The notes: a model not told the origin generated them from the letters alone. A stretch of 64,000 nucleotides of DNA from Candidatus Poribacteria bacterium (GCA_965208325.1 OZ242326.1:1824001-1888000), one strand, 5' to 3'; counted from the stretch's first letter, positions 2,103 through 31,660 are shown. Made by a program: numbers and translations.

Positions 2103-4970
2103 CTAAAACAACGTCCGAAATAGAAACTTGATGTTACGCCCCGGCTCAGGCATGACCGATTTGATTCTCGAAAGGTGTTGGCGATATTCGGAGTCGAGGA
2201 GGTTTTCGATTGCGAACACCGCTTGATGTTGGAGCCCCCAAATCGAAAATAAATACTGGCAGCCCAAATCATAGGCGATGTATCCGTCGGTAGGCTCCTC
2301 AAATTCGCCTAACCGATGCTGCGAATTCGCGAATCTTGCCGTCAAATGGAGGTTCAACGGCTCAGTCACGTATCGGAGCGCTATTTTCCCGTTGAGGGGC
2401 GGCATCCGTTCAATGGGCAGTTCACTATCTTTTAAAGTCCCTCTGACGTAACTCGTGCGCACTTGCGCGTGCACTCGCGGCACAATCTCGGCGTCAACGG
2501 TCAACTCGGCGCCGTCAAGGACGGCATCCAGTCCGCGGTATTGGTAAATCCACAACCAGCCCGCGGCACCGCTGCCCCATTCCTTTTCACCGGTGTTTGC
2601 CGGAATCAGGTAACCGTAAATCTGGTTGCTGAAAATTGCTAGATTCAGTTTTAGCCGATTCCCCTTATAGCGCAGAAACGCCTCTGTTCCCCAGCCGTTC
2701 TCGGTGCCGAGTTCAGAGTTGCCGATTTCGTAGGAGTAGGCTGCCAGGTGAGGGCCATCCGAGAAAAGTTCCTCAATTCCTGGAGCGCGGAAGGTTTTCA
2801 TCATCGTTGCGCCCGCCTTCAAACCGCCGGTCCAATGGTAGATGCTAGACACGGCGCCTGACACGCCTCCGAAGTTTCGGCGACGGACTATTCCCGCCGC
2901 GGTCACTGTTCCCGTCGTGAATGGTTCAACTCGCTTGAAGTCGTAGCGAACCGCACCTTGCAGCGTGAAATCGCTAACTTTCTTCTGATTGAAGTAGAAG
3001 CCTGCGATAGACATTTCCCGCGCGTGCGGCGTCCAGTAGAATCCGCCGGTTGAATGATCGCGATATTCGCTCCACACTCCGGTTATGGCGTCATCAGACA
3101 GATGAGCCAGCGCGGACACATTGGTGGTCAACGCAATAAATTCGACGCCGAGCGTCTTGTTGGATTCAAACTCTTGATGTTGATATCGCGTGTGAGTTGA
3201 ATGAATTTTCAACTTCTCAAAGAACGAGCCATTGATTGAATACTCAAAGTTACCTTCATACCGTTGTCGATCGAGTTCGATATTGACTCCGGAGATGTGT
3301 CCTTCCGGCGATCCGGGGATACCGTAATCTGATCGGTTTCGCCCACCCGAAATACCAAGGTGCCCCCAATTCTTGACCACGGAAGCGCCGCTTGAAAAAT
3401 TGGTGTTTGATAGTGAGGTGTTCTCCAAGATACCAACGGGAGTGCGCGTATCGTCGGCATAGCGGCGATTCCATGCCAATCGCCACGCAAGGTCCCCGAT
3501 TGGAATCGTCAATCCTGTTGTCGCGGTAATTCCAGAATTGACAGATTCGCCCTGAAACTTGAGGTCTACGGAAGGGTGATGAGGCAAAGTCCGCGGGACG
3601 GTTTCGCGTTTGACATCTACGACGCCGCCGAGCGTGTTTGAACCGTAGATAAGCGATGCGGGTCCGCGGATGACCTTGATATTTTTTGCGGTGCTCGGAT
3701 CTATCACGACCGCATGGTCGGCTGCGGACGCCGATTTATCGCCGGTGCGCTCGCCATCCTCAAGAATGAGCAATCGGTCACCGCCCATACCCCGGATGAC
3801 CGGTCGCGCCACGGCGCGCCCCATCGACCGCTGTGCGACACTCACCTCATCGCGGAGTGCATCGGCGATGGTTATTCCCATCTTCGCATCCAGCTGTTCC
3901 TCTGAGAGTACGAGGCTAGTAGTTATTTCAAGCTGAGCGAGGACATCATCGTCAGGCGTGACCAAAATCTCTTGCAGTTGTACCACGCTGCCGTCCATCG
4001 AAACGGTTAATGCCGGTAGATTCGGTGCGAGTCTCGCGAAAAACCCGTGCCTGCGCCCATCCGCCGAATCATAGTGTCCGACGATAGACCCGTCCTGATT
4101 GATATTCCAGCCCTCCGTGCTAATGCTGTTCGGAACCGTAAATTCCTGCAGTCCGTCGCGGAACGTTCCGACATAGGTACGTGTGACACCATCCGCCGGT
4201 TTGGCCCGGGAAACGACAACCGTTGCATCGTTGATACCGTGCACAAAATAGAATTCCAGTCTTTCGGCATGTGAAATGTCGAGCGATACAAACGTGCCTT
4301 TCGGGGTACGAATGTATGGATGAAACAAGCCATCAGCGTCTACGTAGCTTCCCACCATACCACCGCTCGCGTTCACGAAATCGGCGTATGTTTCTGACGC
4401 CCCGGGGAACTCAATTACTTCGTCTCCCGAGAATCCGCGGCGAATCCCGGAAGCATCTATATAATTACCCGTCAGTGCCCCGGTCGTATCACTAATACCG
4501 TAAATCTCCGTTTGGACCGCACCTGGAAAATCGTATTGCCGCAACACGCCATTTTCCAAGATTACACCGTGGTACAGACCATCGCTATTCTGGTAGTGGC
4601 CTGCAGCTATCCCTGTGTTACCGAGTGCATAAAAATAGGTGTTCAGCGAGTCGGGGAAATCGTGCGTTAAAAATTCACCGTCAATTAGCGTAAAGCCGAT
4701 TATTTTTTCACCATCAGCGCTTTTTGTGTTGCCCGCGAAATCGCCGCGGTCGCTACTCGCAGTCAACTCTAAAAACTCCACACCGGGAACATCAATCGTC
4801 TCGACAGTATAGTTGGTGCCGCCGATTGCAACAACGGGATTATCGCCGTCCTGCGCATCAGTGCTTTTTAAGAAAAATGAATTGAGGTACATTATCAATA
4901 CAAACGTGCAATACCAAGTTGCATTCGGAGGTGTTGTTTTCATCATGCGAAACGTCCTCTTCAGTTTCAT
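2103..4970 (-). CDS. TonB-dependent receptor (ZnuD-like) with N-terminal HAF-like beta-propeller extension
   Basis: Plug motifs RPVIRGMGGDRLLILEDG and GPASLIYGSNTLGGVV; ELFSDGPH; barrel end NLLDSEY...PGRN...LF; N-terminal repeats like 'GIND..vvG.Y.d.dG..HGF'. Confidence 0.9.
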   Translation of the reverse strand: MKLKRTFRMMKTTPPNATWYCTFVLIMYLNSFFLKSTDAQDGDNPVVAIGGTNYTVETIDVPGVEFLELTASSDRGDFAGNTKSADGEKIIGFTLIDGEFLTHDFPDSLNTYFYALGNTGIAAGHYQNSDGLYHGVILENGVLRQYDFPGAVQTEIYGISDTTGALTGNYIDASGIRRGFSGDEVIEFPGASETYADFVNASGGMVGSYVDADGLFHPYIRTPKGTFVSLDISHAERLEFYFVHGINDATVVVSRAKPADGVTRTYVGTFRDGLQEFTVPNSISTEGWNINQDGSIVGHYDSADGRRHGFFARLAPNLPALTVSMDGSVVQLQEILVTPDDDVLAQLEITTSLVLSEEQLDAKMGITIADALRDEVSVAQRSMGRAVARPVIRGMGGDRLLILEDGERTGDKSASAADHAVVIDPSTAKNIKVIRGPASLIYGSNTLGGVVDVKRETVPRTLPHHPSVDLKFQGESVNSGITATTGLTIPIGDLAWRLAWNRRYADDTRTPVGILENTSLSNTNFSSGASVVKNWGHLGISGGRNRSDYGIPGSPEGHISGVNIELDRQRYEGNFEYSINGSFFEKLKIHSTHTRYQHQEFESNKTLGVEFIALTTNVSALAHLSDDAITGVWSEYRDHSTGGFYWTPHAREMSIAGFYFNQKKVSDFTLQGAVRYDFKRVEPFTTGTVTAAGIVRRRNFGGVSGAVSSIYHWTGGLKAGATMMKTFRAPGIEELFSDGPHLAAYSYEIGNSELGTENGWGTEAFLRYKGNRLKLNLAIFSNQIYGYLIPANTGEKEWGSGAAGWLWIYQYRGLDAVLDGAELTVDAEIVPRVHAQVRTSYVRGTLKDSELPIERMPPLNGKIALRYVTEPLNLHLTARFANSQHRLGEFEEPTDGYIAYDLGCQYLFSIWGLQHQAVFAIENLLDSEYRQHLSRIKSVMPEPGRNIKFLFRTLF

Positions 4971-5232: not shown

Positions 5233-7851
5233 CTAAAACAACGTCCGATATAGAATCTTGACGTTACGCCCCGGCTCCGGCATCACCGATTTGATTCTAG
5301 AAAGGTGTTGACGGAATTCAGTATTGAATATATTCTCGACAGTGGCTACAAATTGATGTTGAAGTTGCCACATTGAGAACACTACCTGCAAGCCGGCGTC
5401 GTAGACGAGGTACCCGTCTGTCTTTTCTTCAAATTCGCCTAGCCGCTGCTGGTCGTCCGAATACCGCGCTGTCAAATGCAAATTTAACGGTAGGGTAACG
5501 TAGCGCAATGCCACTCGTCCGTTGAGCGGCGGGATGCGTTCGAGCGGCAACCCGCTTGCCGCCAAAGACCCTTTGACGTAACTCATGTGCGACTCTACAT
5601 GAATTCGCGGGAAAATTTCGGCGTCAATACTGATTTCGGCACCGTCGAGGATAGCGTCTTGCCCCTGGTATTGATATATCCACAGCCACCCTGCTGCGCC
5701 GCTACCCCATTCCTTTTCCCCGGTTTGGGTCGGGCTCAGATAGCCGTAAATCTGGTTGCGAAAAACGGCGAGATTGAACTTCATACGGTTGCCTGAATAG
5801 CGCAGAAATGCTTCCGTACCGAAGCCATCCTCCGAACCGAGTTCAGCGTTGCCGATTTCATATGAAAATACCGCGAGATGCGGACCGTCGGAAAAGAGTT
5901 CTTCAATTCCGGGCGTGCGGAATGTTCTCATGAACGTGGCGCCCAACCCAAGGTTTTCGTTCCATTGATAGATGCTTGAGACTGCGCCTGACGCGCCTCC
6001 GAAGTCGCGCTGCTGTACCTTTCCTGCACGTATTTCGACACCTTCAACAAACGGCTCAACCCTTTTCGCGTCGTAACGAAGCGCTGCCTGTAGTGTGAAG
6101 TGGTTGTATCGCTTCTGTTTGAAGAAGAACCCCGCCAAAGATATCTCCCGGGTGTGAGGTGTCCAGTAAAACCCACCCGTCGCATGGTCGCGATACTCGC
6201 TCCAAATTCCTGCAACTGCATCGCCGCGCAAGTGCAGCAGTGCGGTTGTGTTGTATGTCAATACACCGAACTCCACGCCGAGCGTGTTGTTGGATTCATA
6301 CTCTTGGTGTTGATAGCGCGCGTAGGTCGAGTGCAGCTTAATTTTTTCGAGAAACGATCCCTCAAACGCGTATTCCAGATTGCCCTCATACCGTTGGCGA
6401 TCGAGGTCAATGGTAACACCTTGGATGTGGCCTTCGGGCGAGCCGGGGATTCCATAGTCTGAACGGTAGCGGCCGCCGGAAATCCCGATGTGCCCCCAAT
6501 CCTTTACCACTGAAGCACCGGTTGAAAAATTGGTGTTTGATAACGACGTGTTTTCCAAAGTACCGACAGGTGTTTGAATATCGCCGGCGCGGCGGCGGTT
6601 CAGCTCCAACCGCCACGCGAGGTTACCGACCGGAATCGTTACTCCTGTTGTTCCGGTCAGCCCTGAGTTTACCGATTCACTCTGAAACGTGAAGTTCATC
6701 GTCGGCTGGTTGGGGAGAGTTTGCGGGATGGTCTCGCGCTTGACGTTGACTACGCCGCCGAGTGTGCTTGAACCGTAAAGCAGCGACGCTGGACCACGCG
6801 TGATCTCAATCTTTGCCGCGGTAGTTGGGTCAATCGCAACGGCATGGTCAGCAGAGGATGCCGATTTATCGCCTGAGCGCCCGCCGTCTTCGAGGATGAG
6901 CAGACGGTTACCGCCCATTCCCCGGACAACCGGCCGTGCTGCCGATCGCCCCATCGTGCGCTGGGCGATTCCTAGCTCTCCACTAAGGGTCTCGGCAATA
7001 GTTGCGCCCATTTGTTGATTTAGCTTCTGATCAGAGAGTTTGAAATCGGTTGTTTTCTCAAACCGAGCGAGTTCGTCATCGTCAGCCGTGACAATGATTT
7101 CACCGAGCTGGACCGTGCTAGGTTTTAATTTTACATCCAGCCTTATCGGATCCGCATTGACAGCAATTTTCTGATTTAATGTCTCATAACCAACGCACAT
7201 GAATTGCATTCCATGTGTCCCCAACACAATTTGACCAAACTGAAACAGCCCAGTTTCATCAGTTCGCGATTGGATAGTCTTCCCCGCGGCAACAAGGGTA
7301 ACCTCGACGTCCGAGATTGGATTTTTCGTCTCAGCGTCAATCACTTGTCCTGAAACGGAAACGGTGCGGGGCGCGGACAATCCGTCTACATTATGCGTCA
7401 AGAGAATGGCAAAAAGAGAGAACGTAAAAAGTTTAATTGGAGTTATTTCTTTGACCTTGTTCGACAATTTGCAGAGTTGACACATACGGCAGAGATGGCG
7501 ATTGATGAGGTGAACAACTGCTAGCAGAAGTCCGCCCATAGCTATGAAGATTACTTCGCTCCCCTCTGATGCGTGAAACCGTGCAATGTAGATGAGTGTT
7601 AATGCACCACCGAGCATTAGAAACACTCGCCATTTTCGGTGGTGCCGATAGCCCCACGTGAAACTGCCGACAGCAACTCCCACTGCGCCGACAACCAACG
7701 CCAACTCCGCTGACTCGCTGAGAATAAACCCAAGCCCAACCAGAGGCAATACGGTCATCAAGAGCGGGGCTGCCATACAGTGGACGGCACACGCAAACGA
7801 CAAGCATGCGCCTACATTGTCCACGACTGTGTGATTCAGATATCTGTTCAA
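5233..7851 (-). CDS. MerC domain fused in frame to a TonB-dependent receptor (carboxypeptidase-regulatory-like domain + ZnuD-like plug/barrel)
   Basis: aa 1-~128 are nearly identical to stand-alone MerC 29993..30391. Then a signal-peptide-like segment, VSGQVIDAETKNPI...TDETGLF domain, and a plug/barrel paralogous to 2103..4970. Confidence 0.88.
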   Translation of the reverse strand: MNRYLNHTVVDNVGACLSFACAVHCMAAPLLMTVLPLVGLGFILSESAELALVVGAVGVAVGSFTWGYRHHRKWRVFLMLGGALTLIYIARFHASEGSEVIFIAMGGLLLAVVHLINRHLCRMCQLCKLSNKVKEITPIKLFTFSLFAILLTHNVDGLSAPRTVSVSGQVIDAETKNPISDVEVTLVAAGKTIQSRTDETGLFQFGQIVLGTHGMQFMCVGYETLNQKIAVNADPIRLDVKLKPSTVQLGEIIVTADDDELARFEKTTDFKLSDQKLNQQMGATIAETLSGELGIAQRTMGRSAARPVVRGMGGNRLLILEDGGRSGDKSASSADHAVAIDPTTAAKIEITRGPASLLYGSSTLGGVVNVKRETIPQTLPNQPTMNFTFQSESVNSGLTGTTGVTIPVGNLAWRLELNRRRAGDIQTPVGTLENTSLSNTNFSTGASVVKDWGHIGISGGRYRSDYGIPGSPEGHIQGVTIDLDRQRYEGNLEYAFEGSFLEKIKLHSTYARYQHQEYESNNTLGVEFGVLTYNTTALLHLRGDAVAGIWSEYRDHATGGFYWTPHTREISLAGFFFKQKRYNHFTLQAALRYDAKRVEPFVEGVEIRAGKVQQRDFGGASGAVSSIYQWNENLGLGATFMRTFRTPGIEELFSDGPHLAVFSYEIGNAELGSEDGFGTEAFLRYSGNRMKFNLAVFRNQIYGYLSPTQTGEKEWGSGAAGWLWIYQYQGQDAILDGAEISIDAEIFPRIHVESHMSYVKGSLAASGLPLERIPPLNGRVALRYVTLPLNLHLTARYSDDQQRLGEFEEKTDGYLVYDAGLQVVFSMWQLQHQFVATVENIFNTEFRQHLSRIKSVMPEPGRNVKILYRTLF

Positions 7852-7894
7852 TTATTGGCTCCTAACGTCATACGTTACTTTTACCGGTTTCCGC

Positions 7895-7955
7895 TTTGCC
7901 GGTCCGGCATGCCAAATCCGAATTAATCGCTAGATTTGGCACGCTGACAGGCAAA
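7895..7955. other. Long intergenic stem-loop between lipoprotein gene and merC (also 30435..30495)
   Basis: TTTGCCGGTCCGGCATGCCAAATC-loop-GATTTGGCACGCTGACAGGCAAA; no long U-tract, so more likely a stabilising or processing hairpin. Confidence 0.55.
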
Positions 7956-7968
7956 CTTATGTCTTCGG

Positions 7969-8601
7969 TTACGGCGTAACCGTTACGGGAATCAAGAGCG
8001 CCGCCGTGAAATCGGGATGGTCGCCGTGCATGAGTTGGAGCTTGATTTGCGTTTGACCGGCTTTAAGCCCTTTTACCTCAAAGGTGAATTGCTCGGCAAG
8101 CTCATCGCCGTGTTCATCGTGTTCCTCATGCTCATCATGTTCCTCATGCTCATCGTCATCGTCATGCTCATCGTCATCGTCGTGATCATCATGCTCATCG
8201 TGTTCGTCGTGATCGTCGTGGTAAAGGTGTACCTCAATGATTGATGAATCATATCCGCTGAGCGCTAAAGCAAACACCTCTTCCTCGCCATGTTCGTGGT
8301 CGTGGTCGTCTTCCTCTTCCGGATTCTCAGGAAAAAATTCATGGCTGTCGTGGTCAAGGAACGCGGTCAGAACGTCGAGTTCCTCTCCGACTTTGAGCGT
8401 GATACCTCCCGAATGCTCCCCTTCAAATTGACGGTATATCTCGTTCCCGTCAACCTTGAGGACAAAACCGTCTGCATCGGCGTGAAAGGGTTCATCGTCA
8501 TGGCCATTGTCGACAATAGGATTGTCGTCTTCACCGCAAGCAGCGAAAAGTGCAACAGATATGAGTAACAACAACGTAAAACGTAAAACAGGTGTAAACA
8601 T
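7969..8601 (-). CDS. His/Asp/Glu-rich metal-binding lipoprotein, copy 1
   Basis: ATG 8601 after GGAGGA RBS (track start 8637 is probably too long); lipobox LFAAC; HDDHDEHDEH tract; C-terminal LMHGDHPDF. Confidence 0.85.
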   Translation of the reverse strand: MFTPVLRFTLLLLISVALFAACGEDDNPIVDNGHDDEPFHADADGFVLKVDGNEIYRQFEGEHSGGITLKVGEELDVLTAFLDHDSHEFFPENPEEEDDHDHEHGEEEVFALALSGYDSSIIEVHLYHDDHDEHDEHDDHDDDDEHDDDDEHEEHDEHEEHDEHGDELAEQFTFEVKGLKAGQTQIKLQLMHGDHPDFTAALLIPVTVTP

Positions 8602-8760
8602 AATTTCCTCCAGACATAGATAGACTGTATTTCCCAAGCATCACGACTGATGAAACAGTGAAAAATAGGCAGACTACTGCCGAGACTATACACAAGTCAG
8701 CCGGGAAAGACAGATAAAGATTTGGTCAATAAAGACAGCGATATGAGATAAATGAGCAGT

Positions 8761-9066
8761 TTAAACGGGGATAGTCGGCGGGGCGCGACTCCGGACGCAT
8801 TTGTCAAGAATCGTAGAAATGAAAGGTAAGGTGATTGGTCGGCGAATTGAGATGCAGATGTCGAGATTGGTGACATCAACGGGGGTGAGTTCGATACCGA
8901 CGTGGTTGGCATTGAAGAAACAGGCGGAGCAGTGTTCTGAACAGCAATCAACATGCTCATGGTCGTGCGCAAGCGAGATAAGGTTTACCGTTATCAGGTA
9001 ATAGACGATTCCAATCGCTATTGCCCAGGCCACGCTGTTTGGGTGGATTCTAATCTTCTGCAACAC
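8761..9066 (-). CDS. DUF2946/CruR-like leader peptide (TM, HxH, CxxC, C-terminal RAPP), copy 1
   Basis: Hydrophobic N-terminus, AHDHEHVDCCSEHCSAC, ends RSRAPPTIPV*; GAGGTGAGGA RBS. Confidence 0.8.
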   Translation of the reverse strand: MLQKIRIHPNSVAWAIAIGIVYYLITVNLISLAHDHEHVDCCSEHCSACFFNANHVGIELTPVDVTNLDICISIRRPITLPFISTILDKCVRSRAPPTIPV

Positions 9067-9112
9067 TCCTCACCTCATTCATACGTACGAAAATTCGCCA
9101 ACACAGGACAGT

Positions 9113-9141
9113 ATATTAGCACAACCGATCGGTTTTGTCCA
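9113..9141 (-). promoter_or_regulatory. Putative sigma70 promoter with palindromic spacer, copy 1
   Basis: TGGACA-17-TAATAT on minus strand; AACCGATCGGTT palindrome at 9123-9134; conserved in copy 2. Confidence 0.55.
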
Positions 9142-9321
9142 ATTTTTCTGTTTCAAAAAATCGAACCCAGTGGGTATGACCGCCAATTCATCGCACTGAT
9201 TGAGCTAATGATATTGTTGATTCACCCGTCATCGGTAGTAAAGTTTAGATTAAAAGATTTCTATCCAGTCTCTCCTAAAATGCTGTACTATTTCCAATTT
9301 GGATTTGGCTTGCGCGTTGGC

Positions 9322-10611
9322 TCATTGGGGCTGTCTTTCGACCCCGATGGTGTGGACAATCAGGTTAACGCCCCATTCTAGCCACCTTTCATTCTCGGAA
9401 TTTTCTCCCCATTTTAATCCAATTCCAGCGGCGTCGTAGAACACGGCGGTTCGTCCATTGAGCCTAAGCGCATAAAATTCGCCGCGCTTTTTGACGACAC
9501 GCGGCGCCCCTTTCTTAAATTCAAAAAAGCTGCGGCAGACGGCATCCTTTCGATTTATCGGCACGAAATGTGCTTTCTGACCGACAATCTTCCAAACCTC
9601 GAATCGAATGGAGTTTGCCACGGGACCTTCAGTCCCCCATGCGGTGGATATGTCCGAAAAAAGGAGCGTTCCGCCGCTCTGCAGGTAGGTTCGCAGGTTC
9701 GCGCGCTCCGTTTCGGAGAAGGTAAACGCATCTCTGGCTGCGATGTAGACTAGCGGAATGCGGTGAATATCGGGCGAAGCAAGCGGCATCGTCTCAGGCA
9801 AAAGTTGCGTCCGTACCTTCGTCCATCTATTCATCGCATACACCAAGCGATTCAAAGCTTGGGCACGAATGGCATCTGCCGCGTCCTCGTATTGGACAAC
9901 GACGATATTGTAATACCCTGTAATCGCACGTCCGGAACCGCGTACCTCCACCTGAGCCGTGTTTCCCGCGTTACTTTGAATTTTGTCAAGGATGCCGGCG
10001 GCACGGCTTGGCGCAATTACCTTTCCCTCAGAAGCCATTCGTCCATCTATCGGCGAACTGCTCACTGACAAGTTGGGTTGGGAAACCGCATCCGCACTTA
10101 GCTCAACGTTCGTTTGGAATTCGGTCTCCGCCACCGGATTCAAGCTTACCCGAGCGGGGGAGTGCACGACTGTTGCTGATTGCGTTGCCAGGGGTCCCGT
10201 GCGAATCGGCACCGCAGCGACACGCCGGTTAATTGGATTCTTTCGATCCATGTCAACCGCGGCAATCTGCCGGTGCGGCCGTTTTCGGCGTTTGAGCGGC
10301 GATGGGTTCGGCAACGACACAACCGCCACTTGTATGGCAGACTCCGCAACTGGGTGCGGAGTAGGCAACATCGCCACCCATAAAAGGATAAAGGCGTTCA
10401 GCACAAGTGATAACAGCCAAGCTGTTGCGGCAATTCTCCGCCGACGGGCGACTGTAGGTAAGCGCGGCGCGGCTAACACTTCCTTTTTGCGTCCGGCAGT
10501 GAACTTGGGGCGTGACGGGAGCGATTCGGAATATTGGCGTACCTTACGGCGTCTACGCTTTGCCCTAGTGTAATTCAAGCGAGCAATTTGCCGATAACGT
10601 GAGTGATTCAT
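9322..10611 (-). CDS. Membrane-anchored DUF4159 domain protein
   Basis: Basic N-terminus, single TM, Pro/Ser-rich linker, C-terminal 'PLVYIAARDAFTFSETERANLRTYLQSGGTLLFSD...WGVNLIVH'. Confidence 0.75.
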   Translation of the reverse strand: MNHSRYRQIARLNYTRAKRRRRKVRQYSESLPSRPKFTAGRKKEVLAAPRLPTVARRRRIAATAWLLSLVLNAFILLWVAMLPTPHPVAESAIQVAVVSLPNPSPLKRRKRPHRQIAAVDMDRKNPINRRVAAVPIRTGPLATQSATVVHSPARVSLNPVAETEFQTNVELSADAVSQPNLSVSSSPIDGRMASEGKVIAPSRAAGILDKIQSNAGNTAQVEVRGSGRAITGYYNIVVVQYEDAADAIRAQALNRLVYAMNRWTKVRTQLLPETMPLASPDIHRIPLVYIAARDAFTFSETERANLRTYLQSGGTLLFSDISTAWGTEGPVANSIRFEVWKIVGQKAHFVPINRKDAVCRSFFEFKKGAPRVVKKRGEFYALRLNGRTAVFYDAAGIGLKWGENSENERWLEWGVNLIVHTIGVERQPQ

Positions 10612-15961: not shown

Positions 15962-18900
15962 CTACCTTCGTTTTTCGACAACGTAGTAAAGCACTGGTAG
16001 GACGAGCAGCGTCAAGAGCGTTGCGGTTATCATGCCGCCGCTGATGACGATTGCGAGCGGCTTCTGAAGTTCTGCGCCTGAACCGTGGGCGAGCGCAAGC
16101 GGCAGCATTCCTAACCCGGTGGTCAAGGCTGTCATCAACACTGGGCTGATGCGTTCTCCGGCGCCTTTCAACACGGCGTCGTACAGCGAGATGCCTTCCG
16201 CACGAAGGCTGTTTATGTGCGTCACCAATATAATGCCATTTCGCACAGCGATGCCGAACAGGAGGATGAATCCCACCATAGATGGAATACTCAAAACGCC
16301 GCCAGTGAGAAAAACGCTGATGACGCCGCCGATTAACGCGAGCGGCAGGTTCAGCATCACCAACAATGAAAGCCGCATTGAACCCGTCGCAAGATACAAC
16401 AGGATACAGATGCCGACGAGGACAAAGCCGGTTTGAACCAGAATCCGTTTTTGCGCCGCTTGTTGGCTTTCAAACTGTCCGCCGTAGGTGAGGAAATACG
16501 CTTCGGGCAGGTTAATATTTTCGTTAATCTCCCGTTGAGCTTGAGCAATAAAGTTGCCTAAGTCTCGATTTTGAACGTTACACTGAATTACAATCCGCCG
16601 AGATACGTTTTCTCGGTTGATGGTATTCGGCCCGAACCCGTATCCGACATCGGCAACCTGTTTTAACTGAACGAAAGTTCCGGCAGGCGTTCTTAGTTTT
16701 AAGTCTCCGACAGATTCAATAGTGTTGACAAGCGTCGGGTCAATTCGAATCACGAGCGCATACTGCCGTTGCCCTTGAATGACTTGACTCACCGCTTCGC
16801 CTTTGAACGCTGTCTCTGCGAAATGCGTCACATCTTCAACGCGTAAGCCGTAGCGAGCTGCTTCACGCCGCTTGACCTTGATTTGGAGTTGCTCGACTTG
16901 CGCCTGTTGCTCCACCCACAGGTCCACCACGCCGGGAATTTCCGCGATAACCGACCGAATCTCTTCGGCCTTTTGCCTGAGGGTGTTTAGATTTGGCCCA
17001 AACAGTTTCAACGCTACTTGTGCGTTTACACCCGACAGGAGGTGGTCAAGGCGATGCTGAATGGGTTGACCAATGGAGACGTGCACACCGGGGAAATTTT
17101 CCGCGGATAGCAAAGAACGCACTTCGGCAAGTAGTTCCTCACGAGTTTTATCTCTCTCATCGGGGGGAATAAAGTTCACTACCATTTCGTGGGTATCCAC
17201 GCTGTGAGCATGTTCATCGGTTTCTGCCCTCCCGGTACGGCTGCTGACGCTTGTCACTTCCGGAAGCGTCAGGAGTCTGGATTCCATCTCACGACCGATG
17301 CGCGTGGATTCTCCCAACGAAGTTCCCGGCGGCGAGTGGACCGCCACAGAAAAGGTTGCTTCATCCATAACCGGAAGGAATTCGCGGCCCAAGCGGGGTA
17401 TCGACATTATAGTCAAGGTAATCAGCAACAACGCCAACGCAACAACAAGCCACCGCAGCCTCATGACCCAAGAGAGAACAGGTCGATATGCCAGTTTAAT
17501 CCATACAACCACGGGGCTTTCCTTCGCGGCCGGAATTCCTGATTGGGATTCATTTTGCGAACGCCGCATTCGGAAACGTGTCAACAGCAGGTCACTTAGT
17601 ACGGGAACCACGGTTAGCGCGACGAGCAGCGATGCCGCCATTGAAATGACCACCGCCCAACCAAGGGGGCGGAACATACTGCCCTCCATACCGCTCAAGT
17701 TGAAAAGCGGTACGAAAACGAGGATGATAATCAGCGTCGCGAAGACAATTGATGACCGAATCTCATTACTTGCGCGTGTTACAACCTGCGTCGGCGTCTC
17801 GCCGTTTGCTTCGCCCCGGGCGCGGCGCCGGAAGTGCTCCTGCAATCGGCGGTAGATGTTTTCGACGTAGACAATGGCGTCGTCAACTACCATACCAACA
17901 GCGATCGCCAAGCCAGCGAGCGTCATGATATTGAGAGTACCACCCTGAGAAATCAGGGCAATGACAGCTATGATTAGAGAGAGCGGAATGGCTGTCAGTG
18001 TAATTAAGGCGGTGCGAATGTTGAATAGAAAGATAGCCAAGATTATAACGACGAGAATTGCGCCGTCACGCAACGCATCTTTAACAGTATCTACGGCGCG
18101 CCGTATCAGATCGGCTTGCGCATACTCGATTTTAACCTCAACGCCTTCCGGCAGCGACCTTTCCAGCGATTTTAGGACGGAAACAACTTTGTCGTTAAGG
18201 TTTAACGTATTGATCCCCGGTTGCTTAACCACCTTGCCCAAAACCGTCTCTTTCGCATTGCGGCTCCCTGCGCCGCGGCGTATTTCTGGCAGTTCGCCTA
18301 TCTTCAACCTCCCGATATCTTTGACCAGAATCGGCGTGCTGTGCCCCCGCACATCAATGACAACGTTTTCGATGTCGGCAACTGTAGAGATACGCCCCAA
18401 CCCGCGAATCATCAACTCGCGCGTATCCTTGATGAGAAATCCGCCCGCTGAGTTTTCGTTGCTTTTCGCAAGGGCATCTGCAACATCTTCCAGCGAAAGA
18501 TTATAGTTTACCAACTGGGCAGGATTAACGAAGACTTGGTATTGCTTCACGTAGCCGCCAATGTTAATTACATTTGCGATACCGCCCTGGGACTGGAGTT
18601 GATAGCGGATGACCCAATCTGCGAGATCCCGCATTTCCATTTCGTCAAATTCCCCGGTTTCATCAACAACAGCGTACTCTAAGATTTCGCCCAAAAGGGA
18701 GGAAGTCGGCAAGATAATCGGCGCATCCACGCCGTGAGGTAGATTCGGGGCAACGAGTTGAAGCCGTTCAGAGACCATTTGCCGCGCCAGAAAAATATCC
18801 ATTCCCCAATCAAATTCAACGAATACCAGCGACAGGCCAACGGCGGAGGAAGACCGAACTCGCGAGACATACGGTGCACCGTTCATCGCACTTTCGATTG

Positions 18901-19102
18901 GTAACGTGACTAAGGTTTCCATCTCCTCAGGAGACCAGCCGTGCGCCTCGGTAAGAATAGTAATGCGGGGCGGATTGATGTCGGGATAGACATCAATCGG
19001 CGCCGAACGGAATACCCGAAAGCCGATGACAACTATCACAATGGTACACGCGATTGTTAGGAGTCTATTTCTGAGCGAAATTTCCGTGATTTTCGACCAC
19101 AT
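15962..19102 (-). CDS. czcA: Heavy-metal efflux RND permease (CzcA/CusA family)
   Basis: 1046 aa; PIDVYPDI, GMVVDDAIVYVENIYRRL, GIAVRNGI, ERISPVLMTAL. Confidence 0.95.
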   Translation of the reverse strand: MWSKITEISLRNRLLTIACTIVIVVIGFRVFRSAPIDVYPDINPPRITILTEAHGWSPEEMETLVTLPIESAMNGAPYVSRVRSSSAVGLSLVFVEFDWGMDIFLARQMVSERLQLVAPNLPHGVDAPIILPTSSLLGEILEYAVVDETGEFDEMEMRDLADWVIRYQLQSQGGIANVINIGGYVKQYQVFVNPAQLVNYNLSLEDVADALAKSNENSAGGFLIKDTRELMIRGLGRISTVADIENVVIDVRGHSTPILVKDIGRLKIGELPEIRRGAGSRNAKETVLGKVVKQPGINTLNLNDKVVSVLKSLERSLPEGVEVKIEYAQADLIRRAVDTVKDALRDGAILVVIILAIFLFNIRTALITLTAIPLSLIIAVIALISQGGTLNIMTLAGLAIAVGMVVDDAIVYVENIYRRLQEHFRRRARGEANGETPTQVVTRASNEIRSSIVFATLIIILVFVPLFNLSGMEGSMFRPLGWAVVISMAASLLVALTVVPVLSDLLLTRFRMRRSQNESQSGIPAAKESPVVVWIKLAYRPVLSWVMRLRWLVVALALLLITLTIMSIPRLGREFLPVMDEATFSVAVHSPPGTSLGESTRIGREMESRLLTLPEVTSVSSRTGRAETDEHAHSVDTHEMVVNFIPPDERDKTREELLAEVRSLLSAENFPGVHVSIGQPIQHRLDHLLSGVNAQVALKLFGPNLNTLRQKAEEIRSVIAEIPGVVDLWVEQQAQVEQLQIKVKRREAARYGLRVEDVTHFAETAFKGEAVSQVIQGQRQYALVIRIDPTLVNTIESVGDLKLRTPAGTFVQLKQVADVGYGFGPNTINRENVSRRIVIQCNVQNRDLGNFIAQAQREINENINLPEAYFLTYGGQFESQQAAQKRILVQTGFVLVGICILLYLATGSMRLSLLVMLNLPLALIGGVISVFLTGGVLSIPSMVGFILLFGIAVRNGIILVTHINSLRAEGISLYDAVLKGAGERISPVLMTALTTGLGMLPLALAHGSGAELQKPLAIVISGGMITATLLTLLVLPVLYYVVEKRR

Positions 19103-19123
19103 TTATTTGCCTCCTTGGTGCAC

Positions 19124-21151
19124 CTAATGAGAGTGCCCCGCGTGCGAATGACCCCCTTCGGTAACCTTTACGTTTGCGCGTAACAACTGGTGCTGTCCGT
19201 GAATTACCACGCGCTCGCCCGCGGACAGACCGTCCTTTATCTCAATATACCGGTCATCGGCGGCACCTGCCGCGATTTCACGCTTCGTGTAAGTGGATCC
19301 GTGTTCGACGAAAACAAACCGGCTCCCAGCCTCTTCAATCACCGCATTCAACGGAACGCTCAAAACCGGCGCCGCTTTTTCGAGGACGATTGTCTGTTCT
19401 GCGAACATCCCCGGCTTGAGCTGATGGGCCGGATTTGCCACCTCCGCCCAAAATTGGACGGTGCGTTTATCGGGATCCATTTCATCTGAAATGTGGGAGA
19501 TTTTACCGGTGAAAGTCGTATCGGGATACGCCGGTACGCGAATGCGTACCAAGCGGCCCGTCTGGAAATTTTCCTGAATGACTGCGAGCGCGCTTTCATA
19601 CGCGTCGCCTTCAACCCAGACGATGTCGGTGTCCAGTATTGAGAAGAGTATATCACTTTTTTCAACCGTGGCGCCGAGTGTCACGTGTTGGTTGACGATT
19701 TGTCCAGAAGCCGGCGCCTTGACGTAGAAAGTTGGTGATGGCTGACCGGTTTGCGCAATCTTTTCAATTTCGGCGGGTGTGAGTCCGGACACTTGAAGTT
19801 TTTGGCGAATTTTGTTCAAAGTGATTACAGCACTGCGCAGTTCATCTTCAATGTTAAGCATTCCTTCCAATGCTTCCGAACTGGCTACGAAGGCGAGGTA
19901 AATTTCAATCAATTCCTCAGCGGATAATTCGTCGAAAGACACAATTGAACCGGTTTCAGCCAGAGTGTCAAGAAGTGATTCACGCAAGCCTGCAGCCAGT
20001 GCGCGCTGTTTGTTTGCCGCAACCTTGATAGCCGCAATGTTGTACGCCGCAATGGCATCAACCAACTCCGCCCCTGCCTCACTGAGCATGGCGAATTTAC
20101 CAAGCAAGAATTCGCCATCACGCTCCGCCTTCAAATCTGAGTCTAATGTTTCTAAATTTAGCAGCGAAAGGATTGGGGTTTCTCCTCCGTCCATAAGGAT
20201 ATTTTCCAGTGACTGCCCGCTGAATCCGAGGATTTGGAATTGCCGCTTCGCGTCTGCCAGTTCAATTTTCCCTTTCCGGTATTCTGCCTGCTGCGCCACC
20301 AAGTCCTTTTGCGCCGAGATACGCTTTTCCGCAAGGGTTTCTGTCCTGTTGAGTGTAGCCTTTAGCAATCTGAGTTCAACGTCCGCTTTGACTAATCTGA
20401 AACGCATCTGTTCCAACACGGAGGTGGTCTTCGCTACAGCAAGAACATTTCGTTTATCAACTGCAGTTTTCATCTGTTTCAACTCGGATAGCGATTCCAA
20501 GTAATCAATTTGTCGAGTTTGCAATTCGCGGCGAATCTGCTTGGCGAAAACTTCCGTCAATCTCCCTAATTCATCGACTAAAGATTTCTGTTGAGCCTCC
20601 GCTTCAATGAGTTCAATCTGCACCATCTGCAGGTCAAGGCTTTCTAATTCAACTAATACATCCCCCTTCTTTAGTGAGTCACCGAGACTAAAATGGATGC
20701 GCTTTACAATCCCGCCGATTCTAGGTGTGATAACGCTCCGCCTACCGGGGTGAGCGATTACATTGCCGGAAACGTGTACACCCTTCTCAATTGTGCGGAC
20801 ATCAGTCTCGGCTGTTTTCAAACCGATGTTGGCTTTTGCTTTATCGGTAAGGGTCACCGTGTTTTCTTGGCTGTGCGCATGACCTGCGTGTTCGCTGTGA
20901 GGGTGTCCATGCGTGGGAGTGGCATGTTCATCGTGGGAGTGGCCGTGATCGTCTTTTGCATGTGAGTGATTCGCGTGTTCGCCGTGCGAGTGACCATGAT
21001 TTGACGTGTTGTGCGTGTGATCCCCACTTCCCTCATGGACACCTTCACCTTGCGCCCAAATAAATGTTCTAGCGGCATTAAATGAAACCAAACATCCTGT
21101 CACGATACCAGTGATTGCCACAATTCGTGCGAGACGAGAGCTACGCAGCAT
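19124..21151 (-). CDS. czcB: RND periplasmic adaptor (CzcB/CusB family), His-rich termini, elongated helical region
   Basis: PRIGGIVKRIHFSLGDSLKKGDVLVELES, APASGQIV...GATV, NPAHQLKPGMF; lies between czcC and czcA. Confidence 0.9.
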   Translation of the reverse strand: MLRSSRLARIVAITGIVTGCLVSFNAARTFIWAQGEGVHEGSGDHTHNTSNHGHSHGEHANHSHAKDDHGHSHDEHATPTHGHPHSEHAGHAHSQENTVTLTDKAKANIGLKTAETDVRTIEKGVHVSGNVIAHPGRRSVITPRIGGIVKRIHFSLGDSLKKGDVLVELESLDLQMVQIELIEAEAQQKSLVDELGRLTEVFAKQIRRELQTRQIDYLESLSELKQMKTAVDKRNVLAVAKTTSVLEQMRFRLVKADVELRLLKATLNRTETLAEKRISAQKDLVAQQAEYRKGKIELADAKRQFQILGFSGQSLENILMDGGETPILSLLNLETLDSDLKAERDGEFLLGKFAMLSEAGAELVDAIAAYNIAAIKVAANKQRALAAGLRESLLDTLAETGSIVSFDELSAEELIEIYLAFVASSEALEGMLNIEDELRSAVITLNKIRQKLQVSGLTPAEIEKIAQTGQPSPTFYVKAPASGQIVNQHVTLGATVEKSDILFSILDTDIVWVEGDAYESALAVIQENFQTGRLVRIRVPAYPDTTFTGKISHISDEMDPDKRTVQFWAEVANPAHQLKPGMFAEQTIVLEKAAPVLSVPLNAVIEEAGSRFVFVEHGSTYTKREIAAGAADDRYIEIKDGLSAGERVVIHGQHQLLRANVKVTEGGHSHAGHSH

Positions 21152-21237
21152 TTTCTTTCTCCTTGTCCTTTTTGGATAAAAAAATCCTTCAATATTGACT
21201 CACAAGATGATCGGCGGCCGGCACAGTCTGTATTCTG

Positions 21238-22518
21238 TCAGCCTCCTATGCTGTTCGACTGTTGAAACATTTCTACGGAAATTCCGATTGCGGCTTCAAG
21301 TTCTATCAACGCCTTGTGGAACGCCGCCAGCGCGTCGAGGTGCGCGAACCGAATCTTGATAAACTCATTCTGAATTAGTATAACCTCTAAAATCCCGGTT
21401 TGACCTAATTCGTACGCGGCGCGCGTCAGTTTAAGATTTTCATTTAGCAAATCCAACATATCGCCTTCATAAAACTTGAGTTTTTTTTGCGCAGCCTTCA
21501 AAGAAATGAATGCCCCCATCACCTCGCGGGTAATTTGCCGTTCTTTGTTACTAATTTCGATGGCGTTGACCCCCTGTTCGGCTTTTACAACATCAATCTT
21601 GGCACGATTTCGGTCAAAAACCGGCAATTGAAATGAAAACTTTACACCGAATGCCCGCTCATCTGGGCTGCGCTGAGCTATACCTGCTATATTCAGGACG
21701 GGGATATTTGCAGATTTTGCCAGGCGAAGTTCCCTGTCAGTCAACTGCGCGTTTAATCGGAGCGACTTTAGGTCGCCTCGATTTGCCAGAGCGCGAGCCG
21801 TTAATGCGTCGAGTGTCAGGCTTTGAAGCTGGTTCAGCGGCATCTTTTCTGACAAACTCACGACTGCGATAGGTACTGCTTCAAGTGAGGCGCCCATCAG
21901 ATTGTTGATTTCAAGTTGTGCGAGCTGCAATTCGCCCTCTAATGCAGCCGCGCCGCGCAGCGCCGCTTGCAATTGAACCCTCGCCAGATTTAGCTGTGTT
22001 ACCGAAATGTCTCCTGTTTCAAATTGAACCTGAGCGATGTTACGCATGCGTTCGTAGTGCTGAATGACTGCTTCGGTCAGTTTTAGTTTCTCTTGGACAA
22101 GCGCCAAATCGTAAAAACCGAGTTTCACCGACGTAGTAAGCAACCGGGATGCATCTGCGAGCTCAGCATTCACCTTTTCAAGTAAAATATTTGCGATTCG
22201 TTTCCGGTGTCCGTGCTGCCCACCGAGTTCAAAGGGTTTTGATAGTTCAAATACCTGATCACCATCTATCCCCCCAACAAACTCGGTTTCCAGTTCAGGG
22301 TTGCCGAGCAACGCAATGCCATCAATTCGGGCACGGGCGACCTTGAGTCTCTCACGAATCGCGCTAAGTTCCGGGTTGTCACGCAGCGCCGTCTGGATTG
22401 CAGTATCAAGCGCAATTTTGCCTTCCCCCTCCGAAAAGGCAGCTGGAATTTTCACGGTGCTTAATATGAATAGGTACATGCTCACCATTATGAGAATGCG
22501 GCTAGGTGTGGTTTTCAT
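21238..22518 (-). CDS. czcC: Outer-membrane efflux protein (CzcC/TolC family)
   Basis: Signal peptide, ALRDNPEL, FELGGQ...R, LPVFDRNR, YELGQTGILEV. Confidence 0.9.
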   Translation of the reverse strand: MKTTPSRILIMVSMYLFILSTVKIPAAFSEGEGKIALDTAIQTALRDNPELSAIRERLKVARARIDGIALLGNPELETEFVGGIDGDQVFELSKPFELGGQHGHRKRIANILLEKVNAELADASRLLTTSVKLGFYDLALVQEKLKLTEAVIQHYERMRNIAQVQFETGDISVTQLNLARVQLQAALRGAAALEGELQLAQLEINNLMGASLEAVPIAVVSLSEKMPLNQLQSLTLDALTARALANRGDLKSLRLNAQLTDRELRLAKSANIPVLNIAGIAQRSPDERAFGVKFSFQLPVFDRNRAKIDVVKAEQGVNAIEISNKERQITREVMGAFISLKAAQKKLKFYEGDMLDLLNENLKLTRAAYELGQTGILEVILIQNEFIKIRFAHLDALAAFHKALIELEAAIGISVEMFQQSNSIGG

Positions 22519-26185: not shown

Positions 26186-26959
26186 TTAGGATTTACGAAG
26201 TTTGAGTGAATCTGCTTTTAAACGATCGAGCTCAAGATGGTAGATGCCGACAAGTATATCGCCCTCAAACTTTTGCCCAACACGAAAGGTGCCGCGAAGC
26301 GAAATTGGCACATCTTGATAACTGCGGATTTTCTTTTTTTGCGGAACCTCTACATACACCCATTCGTTAAGGAGCGGGATTGCGCCGAAACAGCATGCCA
26401 TTTGGTCTTTGAGCAACACGAAAGTTCGAACGTTATCGAATTCACCTTCAAGCGGCAACATGAACCCTTCAATCTCAATTTTCGACCCGTTCAACGCTCT
26501 GATTTGCGGCGGAATTTCTTCGTCTAGGTTCAGCGCGGAGACGTATTCCGGATCGTCCAATCTAGCCCAGTTCGGCTCCCTGATTCGAAAGCTAGTGAGG
26601 GTGTCAAAGGTCAGTGATTCATAATCGCCCGTGCGCTTGCCGCTCCGTTGACTTTCAACTCTTGGCGGCTGGGAGTCCGGCACCGCGCCCGGCTGTAAAT
26701 CCACGCTGATCTCCGGTGTGGTGTTCACCTCCTCGCGCGGATTGGCATCGCCAGATTCTGCGACCGCCAGCGGGGCACCCTGCACCTCAAAACGTCCAGC
26801 GTTCGACGCTGATTGCTCGCTTACCTTCCTAAGGGCGCGAATCGGATGTGGTTCCGGTAACATTTGAGAAAGACCGAGCGCCAGCGCAACAACAACTACA
26901 CTCGTAATTGCAAAAGGAAGCCAAGAGCTTCGTCGTTTCTCCGTTTTAAGCTGCTTCAT
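26186..26959 (-). CDS. DUF3299 domain protein (ZrgD-like OB fold)
   Basis: LNGSKIEIEGFMLPLE...FVLLKDQMACCFGAIPLLNEWVYV; N-terminal TM. Confidence 0.8.
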   Translation of the reverse strand: MKQLKTEKRRSSWLPFAITSVVVVALALGLSQMLPEPHPIRALRKVSEQSASNAGRFEVQGAPLAVAESGDANPREEVNTTPEISVDLQPGAVPDSQPPRVESQRSGKRTGDYESLTFDTLTSFRIREPNWARLDDPEYVSALNLDEEIPPQIRALNGSKIEIEGFMLPLEGEFDNVRTFVLLKDQMACCFGAIPLLNEWVYVEVPQKKKIRSYQDVPISLRGTFRVGQKFEGDILVGIYHLELDRLKADSLKLRKS

Positions 26960-26975
26960 CGCATTCGCCTCCTAA

Positions 26976-27509
26976 CTAATGGTGATGATGTTCACCGTGC
27001 CCACCCTCGTTGCCTTCGGGAAAATCAAAATCAACGTCAGTGAAGTGCTGCCCCTTCACCGAAATTGACGTGATTTGCGCGTGAAAATCCGTCACGCCCT
27101 TGAGCACGTCGGATTGTCCCTCATATTGAGAGGTATCACCTTCGGTTTCTCCTGTTAAAACGTTTGCAGCGGCTTTGAGTTGCAAAGTAATTGACTGCCC
27201 AGATTTCAACCGATTTAATTTGAGTTCGATGGTGTTCTGCGTGAGGCGCACCGGTTTTTCCGCCTCGCTATCTAGGACATAACCAGTGAGTTTTCCGGTT
27301 GATTCTTCCAGCACAAATTCGAGGTGCGCGAACTCTTTGCCCAACACCACGAGTGCTCCACCGTGCGGCGCCGTATGATGATGGTCGGCGTGTGTTCCAT
27401 GTGTCTCACTCTGATTACCGTGGTGAGCGTCTTTTTTCTCACAACCGAATTGGACAAATGCAATTGTAAAAATTGTCATCAATGTCACGATGGTTTTTTG
27501 GAATTTCAT
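26976..27509 (-). CDS. His-rich metal-binding lipoprotein
   Basis: Lipobox QFGC; HADHHHTAPHGGALV...AHLEFV; C-terminal GHGEHHH. Confidence 0.8.
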   Translation of the reverse strand: MKFQKTIVTLMTIFTIAFVQFGCEKKDAHHGNQSETHGTHADHHHTAPHGGALVVLGKEFAHLEFVLEESTGKLTGYVLDSEAEKPVRLTQNTIELKLNRLKSGQSITLQLKAAANVLTGETEGDTSQYEGQSDVLKGVTDFHAQITSISVKGQHFTDVDFDFPEGNEGGHGEHHHH

Positions 27510-27632
27510 GATGGTTTTTCCTACTCCAAATTTGAGTTAATGGAAACGTCAAATTCTTCGTTATGATTCAGACGTTCCCACACGTTTATGTGGTATCCTT
27601 AGCATATGGATATGCGTCCAAAGGTGAACTCA

Positions 27633-27767
27633 ATGATTAAGGACTCGCCCATGGTTGAAGAAATTCGCCGCATCAGGTGTGCCCTTTCGGCGCAATTTGA
27701 CCGTGATGTGGATAAATATATTTACTACTTGACAAAGGGAACAACGGGGCAAACGGACCTCGTGTAA
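27633..27767 (+). CDS. Small 44-aa protein resembling 'DPIVEEVRRIR' partners of PIN toxins (orphan; absent from ORF track)
   Basis: AAGGTGA RBS; MIKDSPMVEEIRRIRCALSAQFDRDVDKYIYYL... Confidence 0.45.
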   Translation: MIKDSPMVEEIRRIRCALSAQFDRDVDKYIYYLTKGTTGQTDLV

Positions 27768-27945
27768 CTACGGCCGGAATCCCCACCGAATGAGACACAA
27801 GACACGTACGATAAGGGTTAGCTAATTGGCGTTATCGTCATTTGGGTTCATATTTGCACAAGGAGAGATTGACTGATTGATAATCAAGGCTAGGAAGCCT
27901 CTCCCACAAACCAATGCGTAAATGTATAATTTTTAGTTGCAATGC

Positions 27946-29199: not shown

Positions 29200-29317
29200 T
29201 TTTCCACGTGAATATTGTGCCGCAGGATTTTCAGTACGGTGTCACATGTTCGTGCTCAATGCGGGATTCGGATATGCACACTCGCCGGCTGATGCGGCGG
29301 GCGCATTTTTTATGCGA

Positions 29318-29980: not shown

Positions 29981-29992
29981 AACACACCGTGA

Positions 29993-30391: not shown

Positions 30392-30508
30392 TTATTGGCT
30401 CCTAACGTCATACGTTACTTTTACCGGTTTCCGCTTTGCCGGTCCGGCATGCCAAATCCGAATTAATCGCTAGATTTGGCACGCTGACAGGCAAACTTAT
30501 GTCTTCGG

Positions 30509-31611: not shown

Positions 31612-31660
31612 GACTCCTTACCTCATTCAAACGTTCAAAAATTCGCCAACACAGCATTGT

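Follow-up and report, generated by a model that had tools for sequence, protein, structure and literature searches.

The stretch analysed here, referred to as the window, comprises 64,000 nucleotides (nt) from a Candidatus Poribacteria bacterium (GCA_965208325.1 OZ242326.1:1824001-1888000), and its minus strand carries two operons, each headed by a short open reading frame (ORF) that we call the leader. With moderate confidence, we propose that each leader encodes a cis-acting, metal-sensing arrest peptide of the type of CruR (Bp2923), the copper-responsive upstream regulator of bfrG in Bordetella pertussis (PMC9426467), and that a sufficient supply of the metal, most likely Zn2+, makes it shut down an operon for metal uptake. 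The leader ORF is real, under purifying selection and widely conserved, while we infer the arrest, the effect of metal in releasing it, which metal this is, the direction of the regulation and the involvement of Rho. A sequence-only reading of this DNA had described an ORF of about 100 residues with a transmembrane segment, HDHEH and CxxC motifs and a terminal RSRAPPTIPV, and had reported these motifs as invariant in a second copy at 31309..31611 despite divergence elsewhere. Both descriptions hold. The features of the leader are as follows.

8761..9063, minus strand: leader ORF, copy 1, 100 residues from a TTG start
31309..31611, minus strand: leader ORF, copy 2, 100 residues, with its RAPP codons at 31324..31335
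8968..9036, minus strand: predicted transmembrane helix, codons 10-32 (AlphaFold2 helix with a block predicted local distance difference test score, pLDDT, of 81-84)
8902..8967, minus strand: candidate metal site H33-x-H35-E-H37, C45-x-x-C48 and H54, from residue conservation
8788..8919, minus strand: linker between CxxC and RAPP, 44 codons, constant in length, poorly conserved in sequence and predicted to be disordered
8776..8787, minus strand: codons of R93-A-P-P96, the predicted arrest point, from the retention of RAPP and the analogy with CruR

Residues are numbered from the TTG, which is the start common to all five aligned orthologues and paralogues; an alternative in-frame GTG would give copy 1 a length of 101 residues (8761..9066). 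Both copies share the same layout, made up of a short basic N-terminus, a hydrophobic helix, HDHEH (H33-D-H-E-H37), CSAC (C45-S-A-C48), FFNANH, a variable stretch, and the sequence V-R-S-R-A-P-P-T-I-P-V followed by the stop codon, so that RAPP ends four residues ahead of the stop (tail TIPV). The two proteins are 75% identical, and their hydrophobic helix and HDHEH, CSAC, H54, RAPP and TIPV motifs are strictly so. The AlphaFold2 model contains only helix 10-32 and a short helix at residues 46-54, and pLDDT falls below 50 at residues 58-64, 66-68 and 70-91. K3 and R5 precede the first helix and an acidic and histidine-containing stretch follows it; read from charge alone, the helix would be oriented N-in, which would put the His/Cys cluster in the periplasm.

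A RAPP tetrapeptide alone is not above chance, since the six-frame translation of the window contains seven, against a mean of 3.8 and a maximum of 11 in 30 shuffles. The leader exceeds chance because of purifying selection, family-wide retention of its motifs and a nearly constant distance between CxxC and RAPP. The ratio of nonsynonymous to synonymous substitution rates (dN/dS) lies between 0.14 and 0.44 in 10/10 pairwise comparisons of five leader copies, two from the window and three from other Poribacteria genomes. Nine close relatives, 11 cluster representatives at 50% identity and, by profile search at E<=1e-3, at least 149 proteins were found; none of the 120 family members listed has a precomputed Pfam domain. 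CxxC is present in 125/125 family proteins examined and RAPP in 124/125, a count that is partly circular as the profile search favours motif-bearing sequences; the constancy of length is not circular. The CxxC-RAPP spacing is 44 residues in 90 proteins, 45 in 32, 42 in one and 46 in one (44 or 45 in 122/124), with a standard deviation of 0.5 residues as compared with 2.8 for the HxH-CxxC distance, 6.2 for the tail that follows RAPP and 9.4 for the N-terminus. Conservation across 126 sequences is complete or at least 90% for H33, H35, C45, C48 and H54, and the tail measures four residues in 21 proteins, 10-11 in 80 and other lengths in 23 (n = 124). The linker is the least conserved segment of the leader, and because its length is fixed, its sequence free, its structure absent from the model and its end marked by RAPP, it fits a ruler running through the ribosomal tunnel rather than a fold. 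With such a fixed ruler of 44-45 residues, the leader lends itself to studies of how a RAPP arrest is freed by folding that a ligand induces at the tunnel exit. Searches against plasmids with tblastn returned no match for P0083, a member of the family; with the window leader they returned one match, in a Burkholderia replicon (E = 0.1), which lies in the wrong frame and was dropped as spurious.

The defining traits of DUF2946 and CruR are a CxxC motif, RAPP three residues from the end, 45 residues between the two (give or take one or two), and an N-terminal export or transmembrane segment (PMC9426467). According to the same source, more than 95% of DUF2946 members carry an export signal, they often come first in operons that include a TonB-dependent transporter, and their intergenic regions are long; in CruR, both CxxC and RAPP are required, the cruR-bfrG intergenic region measures 162 bp, and coarse mapping puts the Rho utilisation (rut) site in a C>G region within cruR. 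The window leaders resemble CruR by their predicted N-terminal export or transmembrane segment, CxxC, C-proximal RAPP, CxxC-RAPP spacing (44-45 here versus 45) and predicted disorder, by their position as first gene of a TonB-receptor operon, by the length of the intergenic region (159 nt versus 162 bp) and by the C>G skew within the ORF. Unlike CruR, they return no match with PF11162, the Pfam profile of DUF2946, and their family possesses an extra invariant HxH(E)H motif and a histidine six residues after CxxC; from RAPP to the end there are 4 residues in the window clade and 10-11 in the main clade instead of 3, the downstream genes are of zinc type instead of copper type, and the phylum is Poribacteria. 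The U-rich spacer that follows the ORF has about 40% G+C; the intergenic region of cruR, by contrast, is described as rich in G+C and is probably structured. The sequence-only reading had called the leader a CruR analogue, which stands as regards motifs, spacing, operon position and intergenic length, and fails as regards a PF11162 match of the window proteins.

The transcript features on which a mechanism can be built are the following.

9113..9141, minus strand: promoter-like site of operon 1, TGGACA-17-TAATAT with TG ahead of the -10, the sole such site in 8400..9400
31661..31689, minus strand: promoter-like site of operon 2, TGGACA-17-TAAAAT
8764..8943, minus strand: C-rich, G-poor half of the copy 1 ORF (nt 121-300), candidate Rho loading region, with (C-G)/180 = 0.20
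8602..8760, minus strand: spacer of copy 1, 159 nt, U-rich
31151..31308, minus strand: 158-nt spacer of copy 2, reaching to the next ATG and containing a hairpin (31230..31217)
8625..8713, minus strand: two-helix RNA element, with an outer stem pairing 8713..8700 with 8639..8625 and an inner 5-bp hairpin at 8681..8668 followed by a U run

The promoter-like site of operon 1 is kept in all five aligned loci, and the scan of 8400..9400 found no internal promoter in the copy 1 spacer. The C>G skew of ORF nt 121-300 ranks at the 99.6th (copy 1) and 98.7th (copy 2) percentile of the 180-nt stretches of the window, and the 78-nt C>G maxima in the ORF reach the 99.9th and 99.3rd percentile, respectively. 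The spacer is more conserved than the synonymous sites of the leader (Jukes-Cantor distance 0.13-0.21 versus dS 0.38-0.63). In the two-helix element, 94% of cells are paired across six sequences, as compared with 32-55% when partners are slid, the structure having been derived from the same sequences that were used to score its pairing; the inner hairpin is paired in 30/30 cells and 6/6 sequences, with four wobble-compatible changes and a single compensatory one. The conserved hairpin and its U run are a possible pause or termination point. An Rfam search of 7800..9400 (E<=1) returned only a chance microRNA match on the opposite strand, therefore no known riboswitch or RNA family is found at the leader.

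We suggest that transcription would start at the sigma-70-like promoter, about 45 nt 5' of the leader, which would be translated from its weak TTG start, its N-terminal helix leaving the ribosome and engaging the membrane. When the ribosome reaches Pro95/Pro96 of the invariant S-R-A-P-P, peptide-bond formation would be blocked, presumably with P95 in the P site and P96 in the A site. CruR itself arrests in vitro with its two Pro codons occupying the P and A sites, as seen by toeprint (PMC12992588), and RAPP arrests have been explained structurally (PMC10951233). In the arrested complex, the His-x-His...Cys-x-x-Cys...His cluster would lie 42-63 residues from the peptidyl-transferase centre, just past the exit tunnel. 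Without metal, the arrest would persist, the stalled ribosome shielding the C-rich half of the ORF at its 3' end and queued ribosomes, if any, the rest of it, so that Rho would be kept off and RNA polymerase would pass through the 159-nt spacer into the lipoprotein, MerC, and TonB-receptor or ABC (ATP-binding cassette) genes. With metal bound, the cluster would compact and, by pulling on the 44-residue ruler, free the arrest, after which the ribosome would terminate four codons further on, the rut-like RNA would be bared, and transcription would end in the spacer, perhaps with the hairpin and U run as pause site. A precedent for such a release is the Zn2+-dependent folding of a 29-residue zinc finger, which relieves the SecM arrest at linker lengths of 24-26 residues (PMC4571824); the ruler of 44 residues, longer than this ADR1a-SecM linker, would bring folding to the translocon or to a point just beyond the tunnel.

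The promoter-like sites enclose, between their -35 and -10 hexamers, an imperfect palindrome, ACAA-N10-TTGT (9121..9138, minus strand; near 31669..31686 in copy 2), the centre of which differs symmetrically between the copies (CCGATCGG versus CCAATTGG). A metal-responsive repressor might use this palindrome as its operator, adding a transcriptional layer of control.

The metal is best approached through the genes that the leaders precede. In operon 1, the leader is followed by a His/Asp/Glu-rich lipoprotein, a MerC-like protein and a TonB-dependent receptor in one frame, and a second receptor.

7969..8601, minus strand: His/Asp/Glu-rich lipoprotein with lipobox LFAAC, first gene after the leader
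5233..7851, minus strand: MerC-like membrane protein and ZnuD-like TonB-dependent receptor in one frame (Pfam MerC 1.2e-20, Plug, TonB barrel)
2103..4970, minus strand: second ZnuD-like TonB-dependent receptor (ZnuD 184.5 bits, cut-off 950)

Operon 2 is composed of a different set.

26186..31150, minus strand: genes of operon 2 as a whole
30509..31150, minus strand: His-rich lipoprotein
29993..30391, minus strand: MerC-like protein
29318..29980, minus strand: LolD/MacB-type ABC ATPase
27946..29199, minus strand: FtsX/MacB_PCD permease
26976..27509, minus strand: His-rich lipoprotein of 177 residues
26186..26959, minus strand: DUF3299 protein

The best NCBIfam match of the first receptor is ZnuD, a zinc-piracy receptor, with 190.7 bits (cut-off 950). 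The operon 2 set is of the zrgDACBE or PA4063-66 type, with the leader in the position of zrgD. In Vibrio, zrgD-A-C-B-E is a Zur-regulated zinc importer in which ZrgE is a DUF3299 protein, ZrgB and ZrgC are the ABC parts and ZrgA is a His-rich periplasmic zinc binder (PMC9817125), and ZrgD (DUF2607), the product of the first gene, is a protein of about 100 residues with one transmembrane helix and of unknown function (PMC9817125, PMC9820375). Like ZrgD, the leader has about 100 residues and one predicted transmembrane helix and comes first, ahead of a His-rich periplasmic-type protein, a MacB-type ABC ATPase with its permease, and a DUF3299 protein. Unlike ZrgD, the window leaders do not match PF10795, and the His-rich lipoprotein is not ZrgA-like in fold. 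The zrg parallel is organisational only, because neither Pfam, nor PDB sequence, nor fold searches identify the lipoprotein as a ZrgA homologue. Zinc is favoured because ZnuD is the best match of both receptors and because the MacB-type ABC and DUF3299 set is that of the Zur-regulated zrg operon, and the invariant ligand set H33, H35, C45, C48 and H54 suits Zn2+. The sequence-only reading had proposed tuning to zinc, nickel or cobalt: a metal other than copper is indeed plausible from the downstream genes, while sequence does not separate zinc from nickel or cobalt and gene content favours zinc.

Several results weigh against a CruR-type sensor of zinc. A hidden Markov model search against DUF2946, the check suggested by the sequence-only reading, left the window leaders unmatched: neither Pfam nor NCBIfam returned any hit, even at E<=10 (the PF11162 gathering score is 23.7 bits), and in a detailed PF11162 scan 14 of 27 relatives match at 15.1-22.5 bits, all under this cut-off. 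As for the RNA, the same reading had assigned rut to a pyrimidine-rich spacer of about 160 nt. Its length (159 and 158 nt) and its pyrimidine content (60-61%) are as described, the richness being in U (40%) and not in C (19-21%, with 19% G); with C/G at 0.94-1.13, about 1, the spacer is rejected as a rut site on composition, and the C>G stretch is found instead within the ORF (nt ~120-300), where it ranks in the window's top 0.1-1%; the coarse mapping of rut in cruR points to the corresponding place. An unusually stable spacer structure is likewise rejected (z of -0.85 and +0.81 versus shuffles), the single-sequence folds of the spacer are mutually inconsistent, and covariation is minimal, with one compensatory pair, a count reached in 143/500 shuffles. 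The tail of the main clade is moderately conserved (V 60%, F 60%, S 70% in 29 non-redundant sequences), which hints that the full-length product may matter. Regarding the metal, the ZnuD scores of 185-191 bits are far under the cut-off of 950, and the lipoprotein model returns weak matches to Ig-like S-layer domains (template-modelling score about 0.3), with no ZrgA or PA4063 among the matches listed. CxxC also binds Cu(I), and zinc, the most likely metal, is a best guess from gene content, which is an association. Finally, the gene context was seen only at the four loci returned by a scan of the genome collection (L001-L004), all from Poribacteria, and the behaviour of the leader is a prediction from sequence and structural models.

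On the family level, PF11162 is matched at E<=1 by 80 of 126 relatives (best 4.8e-5), and all 14 alignments of the detailed scan are collinear, beginning in the His/Cys region and extending to position 117/117 of the profile, a position verified in P0083 as its RAPP. Because the window proteins miss PF11162 while their relatives match it below threshold, collinearly and up to RAPP, the leaders are best treated as a distinct His-rich branch and are not DUF2946 members at the Pfam level; from these alignments we read the leader family as a new His-rich branch of the CruR-type device. The nearest named clusters in the protein-language-model Atlas are DUF2946 and DUF2607, both of them leads only; the DUF2607 clusters score 0.94 with 172/256 features, which is a lead from feature similarity. 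PF10795 (DUF2607) matches neither window leader at E<=10 and is not among the 25/38 families listed for the 126 relatives.

Among the alternatives, the same arrest and sensor could have a translational output, as in SecM-secA or CutF-cutO, the stalled ribosome unmasking the Shine-Dalgarno sequence of the lipoprotein gene (GGAGG, 8607..8611) without Rho, which we consider rather unlikely. CutF, a DUF2946-like protein encoded upstream of cutO in Rhodobacter capsulatus, operates in this manner (bioRxiv 10.1101/2025.02.05.636593), and shares with the leaders its small size, export, a Cys motif, a C-terminal proline stall motif and metal-responsive control of the next gene. Moreover, a consensus fold pairs UCCGGA (codons 90-92, within the footprint of a RAPP-stalled ribosome) with UCUGGA of the lipoprotein Shine-Dalgarno sequence, this pairing is kept in 5/5 sequences with a G-U pair turned into A-U at L003, and the Shine-Dalgarno sequence is mostly paired in ensemble folds. 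However, this helix has only 6 bp over about 180 nt, one of its arms is a palindromic hexamer, both arms are conserved for other reasons, and no pair is altered on both sides; the minimum-free-energy partners of the Shine-Dalgarno sequence vary between sequences, and folds with a ribosome forced onto RAPP freed it in 0/5 sequences. CutF also differs by its CxxxC and PPP motifs and its sensitivity to elongation factor P, and it stalls with copper, which melts a stem-loop over the Shine-Dalgarno sequence and so switches on an oxidase that serves detoxification. The opposite sign of regulation is expected here, because RAPP precedes uptake genes.

The arrest and its transcriptional output may also be as proposed with another metal, copper as in CruR, or nickel or cobalt, although this is improbable. 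CxxC is the copper-sensing motif of CruR (PMC9426467), and both receptors also score on the TonB-copper model. His-rich stretches bind Cu(II), nickel and cobalt as well, and MerC-type transporters are not specific for zinc. Nevertheless, the receptors obtain 53-55 bits with TonB-copper versus 185-191 bits with ZnuD, the ABC and DUF3299 set is of the Zur-regulated zrg/PA4063-66 type, no copper-chaperone gene (PCuAC, YcnI, CopC, PepSY) was seen in the two operons, and the extra invariant histidines result in a Cys2His2-3 ligand set.

It is no more probable that the leader is a subunit of the uptake system or a single-pass membrane metallochaperone (as assumed for zrgD) devoid of any cis role, RAPP being a conserved C-terminal motif or a harmless pause: the Atlas auto-name of the nearest cluster, 'ABC-type zinc uptake system zinc chaperone', the moderate conservation after RAPP and the periplasmic location of the His/Cys cluster if the helix inserts N-in speak for it, but the CxxC-RAPP distance is fixed at 44-45 residues in the least conserved and predicted disordered segment, the long conserved spacer and weak TTG start suit a leader, and single zrgD knockouts are without growth phenotype (PMC9820375).

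Returning to the CruR-type arrest peptide, RAPP upstream ORFs preceding TonB receptors and copper genes are known across phyla, and a 'TonB-related' class has been delineated (Fujiwara et al. 2025, PMC12992588). The leaders resemble the arrest peptides with RAPP or RGPP, such as ApdA and ApdP, and the upstream ORFs of this survey in being small proteins with a C-proximal RAPP and a localisation signal, encoded upstream of a related gene (PMC12992588). The TonB-class ORFs of the survey possess signal sequences, while its excerpts describe no His-rich family or fixed CxxC ruler, and the word 'zinc' does not occur in the paper. A description of a zinc-linked RAPP leader was not found in open-access or bioRxiv papers (main texts; titles and beginnings of abstracts for the DUF2946 and DUF2607 papers), and a Caulobacter Zur paper only tabulates DUF2946 genes. 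According to the CruR study (PMC9426467), no riboswitch is known for copper or zinc, and CruR was the first transition-metal-sensing upstream ORF. A zinc-tuned relative, if true, would make the device formed by CxxC, ruler and RAPP a general and retunable metal sensor, extend the copper switch known from Bordetella to another metal and another phylum, provide zinc uptake with a regulatory layer besides Zur, and suggest a testable function for a widespread unannotated family (at least 149 clusters) and possibly for zrgD. A broader and more tentative extension, which we hold as doubtful, is that the whole leader family, together with, by position, zrgD/DUF2607 at the head of Vibrio-type zrg operons, consists of zinc-sensing nascent-chain switches in which a Zn2+-folded Cys2His2-3 knuckle, 44-45 residues from RAPP, pulls the chain and frees the ribosome. 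If so, these proteins would be a natural counterpart of the engineered ADR1a-SecM force sensor and the first post-transcriptional zinc sensor of this type, working alongside Zur or in its place.

Regarding the individual downstream proteins, the operon 1 lipoprotein has 575 homologues, none of them annotated, and its AlphaFold2 model is a beta-sandwich (mean pLDDT 76.6). Its identification as a homologue of ZrgA/PA4063 was rejected, as there is no Pfam ZrgA match and the PDB sequence matches cover low-complexity segments only. The frame that joins MerC and the first receptor is uninterrupted over 872 residues, and its L001 equivalent (7246..9840) comprises 864 residues with a different junction and no canonical start nearby. 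A signal-peptide-like segment of the receptor comes after the last MerC helix, and MerC is separate in copy 2. The frame may encode a genuine fusion protein with a cleavable signal inside it, or an unusual start may be used. The second receptor exhibits an N-terminal extension of ~330 residues, with the plug at residues 353-450, and is 72% identical in DNA to the first over 1.9 kb. In operon 2, the DUF3299 protein returns a weak match with PDB chain 4hsp_A, a hypothetical protein of 150 residues (E 9.3e-4), and no match by tblastn against plasmids; a PDB sequence search with the His-rich protein of 177 residues gave no informative match.

The two operons share a duplication of 1.7 kb (7457..9158 versus 29997..31706, 91% nt identity) that takes in the promoter region, the leader, the spacer, the His/Asp-rich lipoprotein gene and the MerC-like gene. 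The leader is its most diverged part, the downstream genes being about 96% identical. In the segments 7457..8601 and 29997..31150, the N-terminal region of the lipoprotein and the MerC parts are ~96% identical between the window copies. The MerC part is 95.8% identical between them versus about 89% to the L001/L002 orthologue, while the leaders have diverged and are mosaic. MerC being closer between the copies than to the orthologues, and the leaders being mosaic, this suggests gene conversion between the two operons. The order leader, spacer, lipoprotein is common to both window copies (W1 and W2), L001, L002 and L003. A single genome carries both L001 and L002, 24 kb from each other, the former syntenic with window copy 1 and the latter with copy 2, so these genomes diverged after the two-operon arrangement had arisen. 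L003 is recombinant, a chimera of both operons in which a fragment of the operon 2 ABC ATPase is fused to the operon 1 receptor (7412..9739), and at L004 (6300..10375) insertion-sequence-like and methyltransferase-like genes lie between leader and receptor. In a further genome, homologues of the leader and of the lipoprotein are found on the same contig with adjacent locus tags.

Elsewhere in the window, P0126 (22736..23167, minus strand) is an ORF of 143 residues with an N-terminal hydrophobic helix and an HCDSC motif, without RAPP and without Pfam match, which heads an operon (15962..22518, minus strand) encoding an outer-membrane factor, a CusB-like adaptor and an RND (resistance-nodulation-division) pump. 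It was rejected as a member of the leader family, only a 5-residue motif aligning with the family profile, and could represent a different type of small upstream ORF linked to metals. Lastly, 53472..54139 consists of 16.9 tandem copies (90% matches) of a 40-nt unit that contains a GC-rich hairpin, and this unit also occurs inside a 346-nt repeat at 47731..49096.

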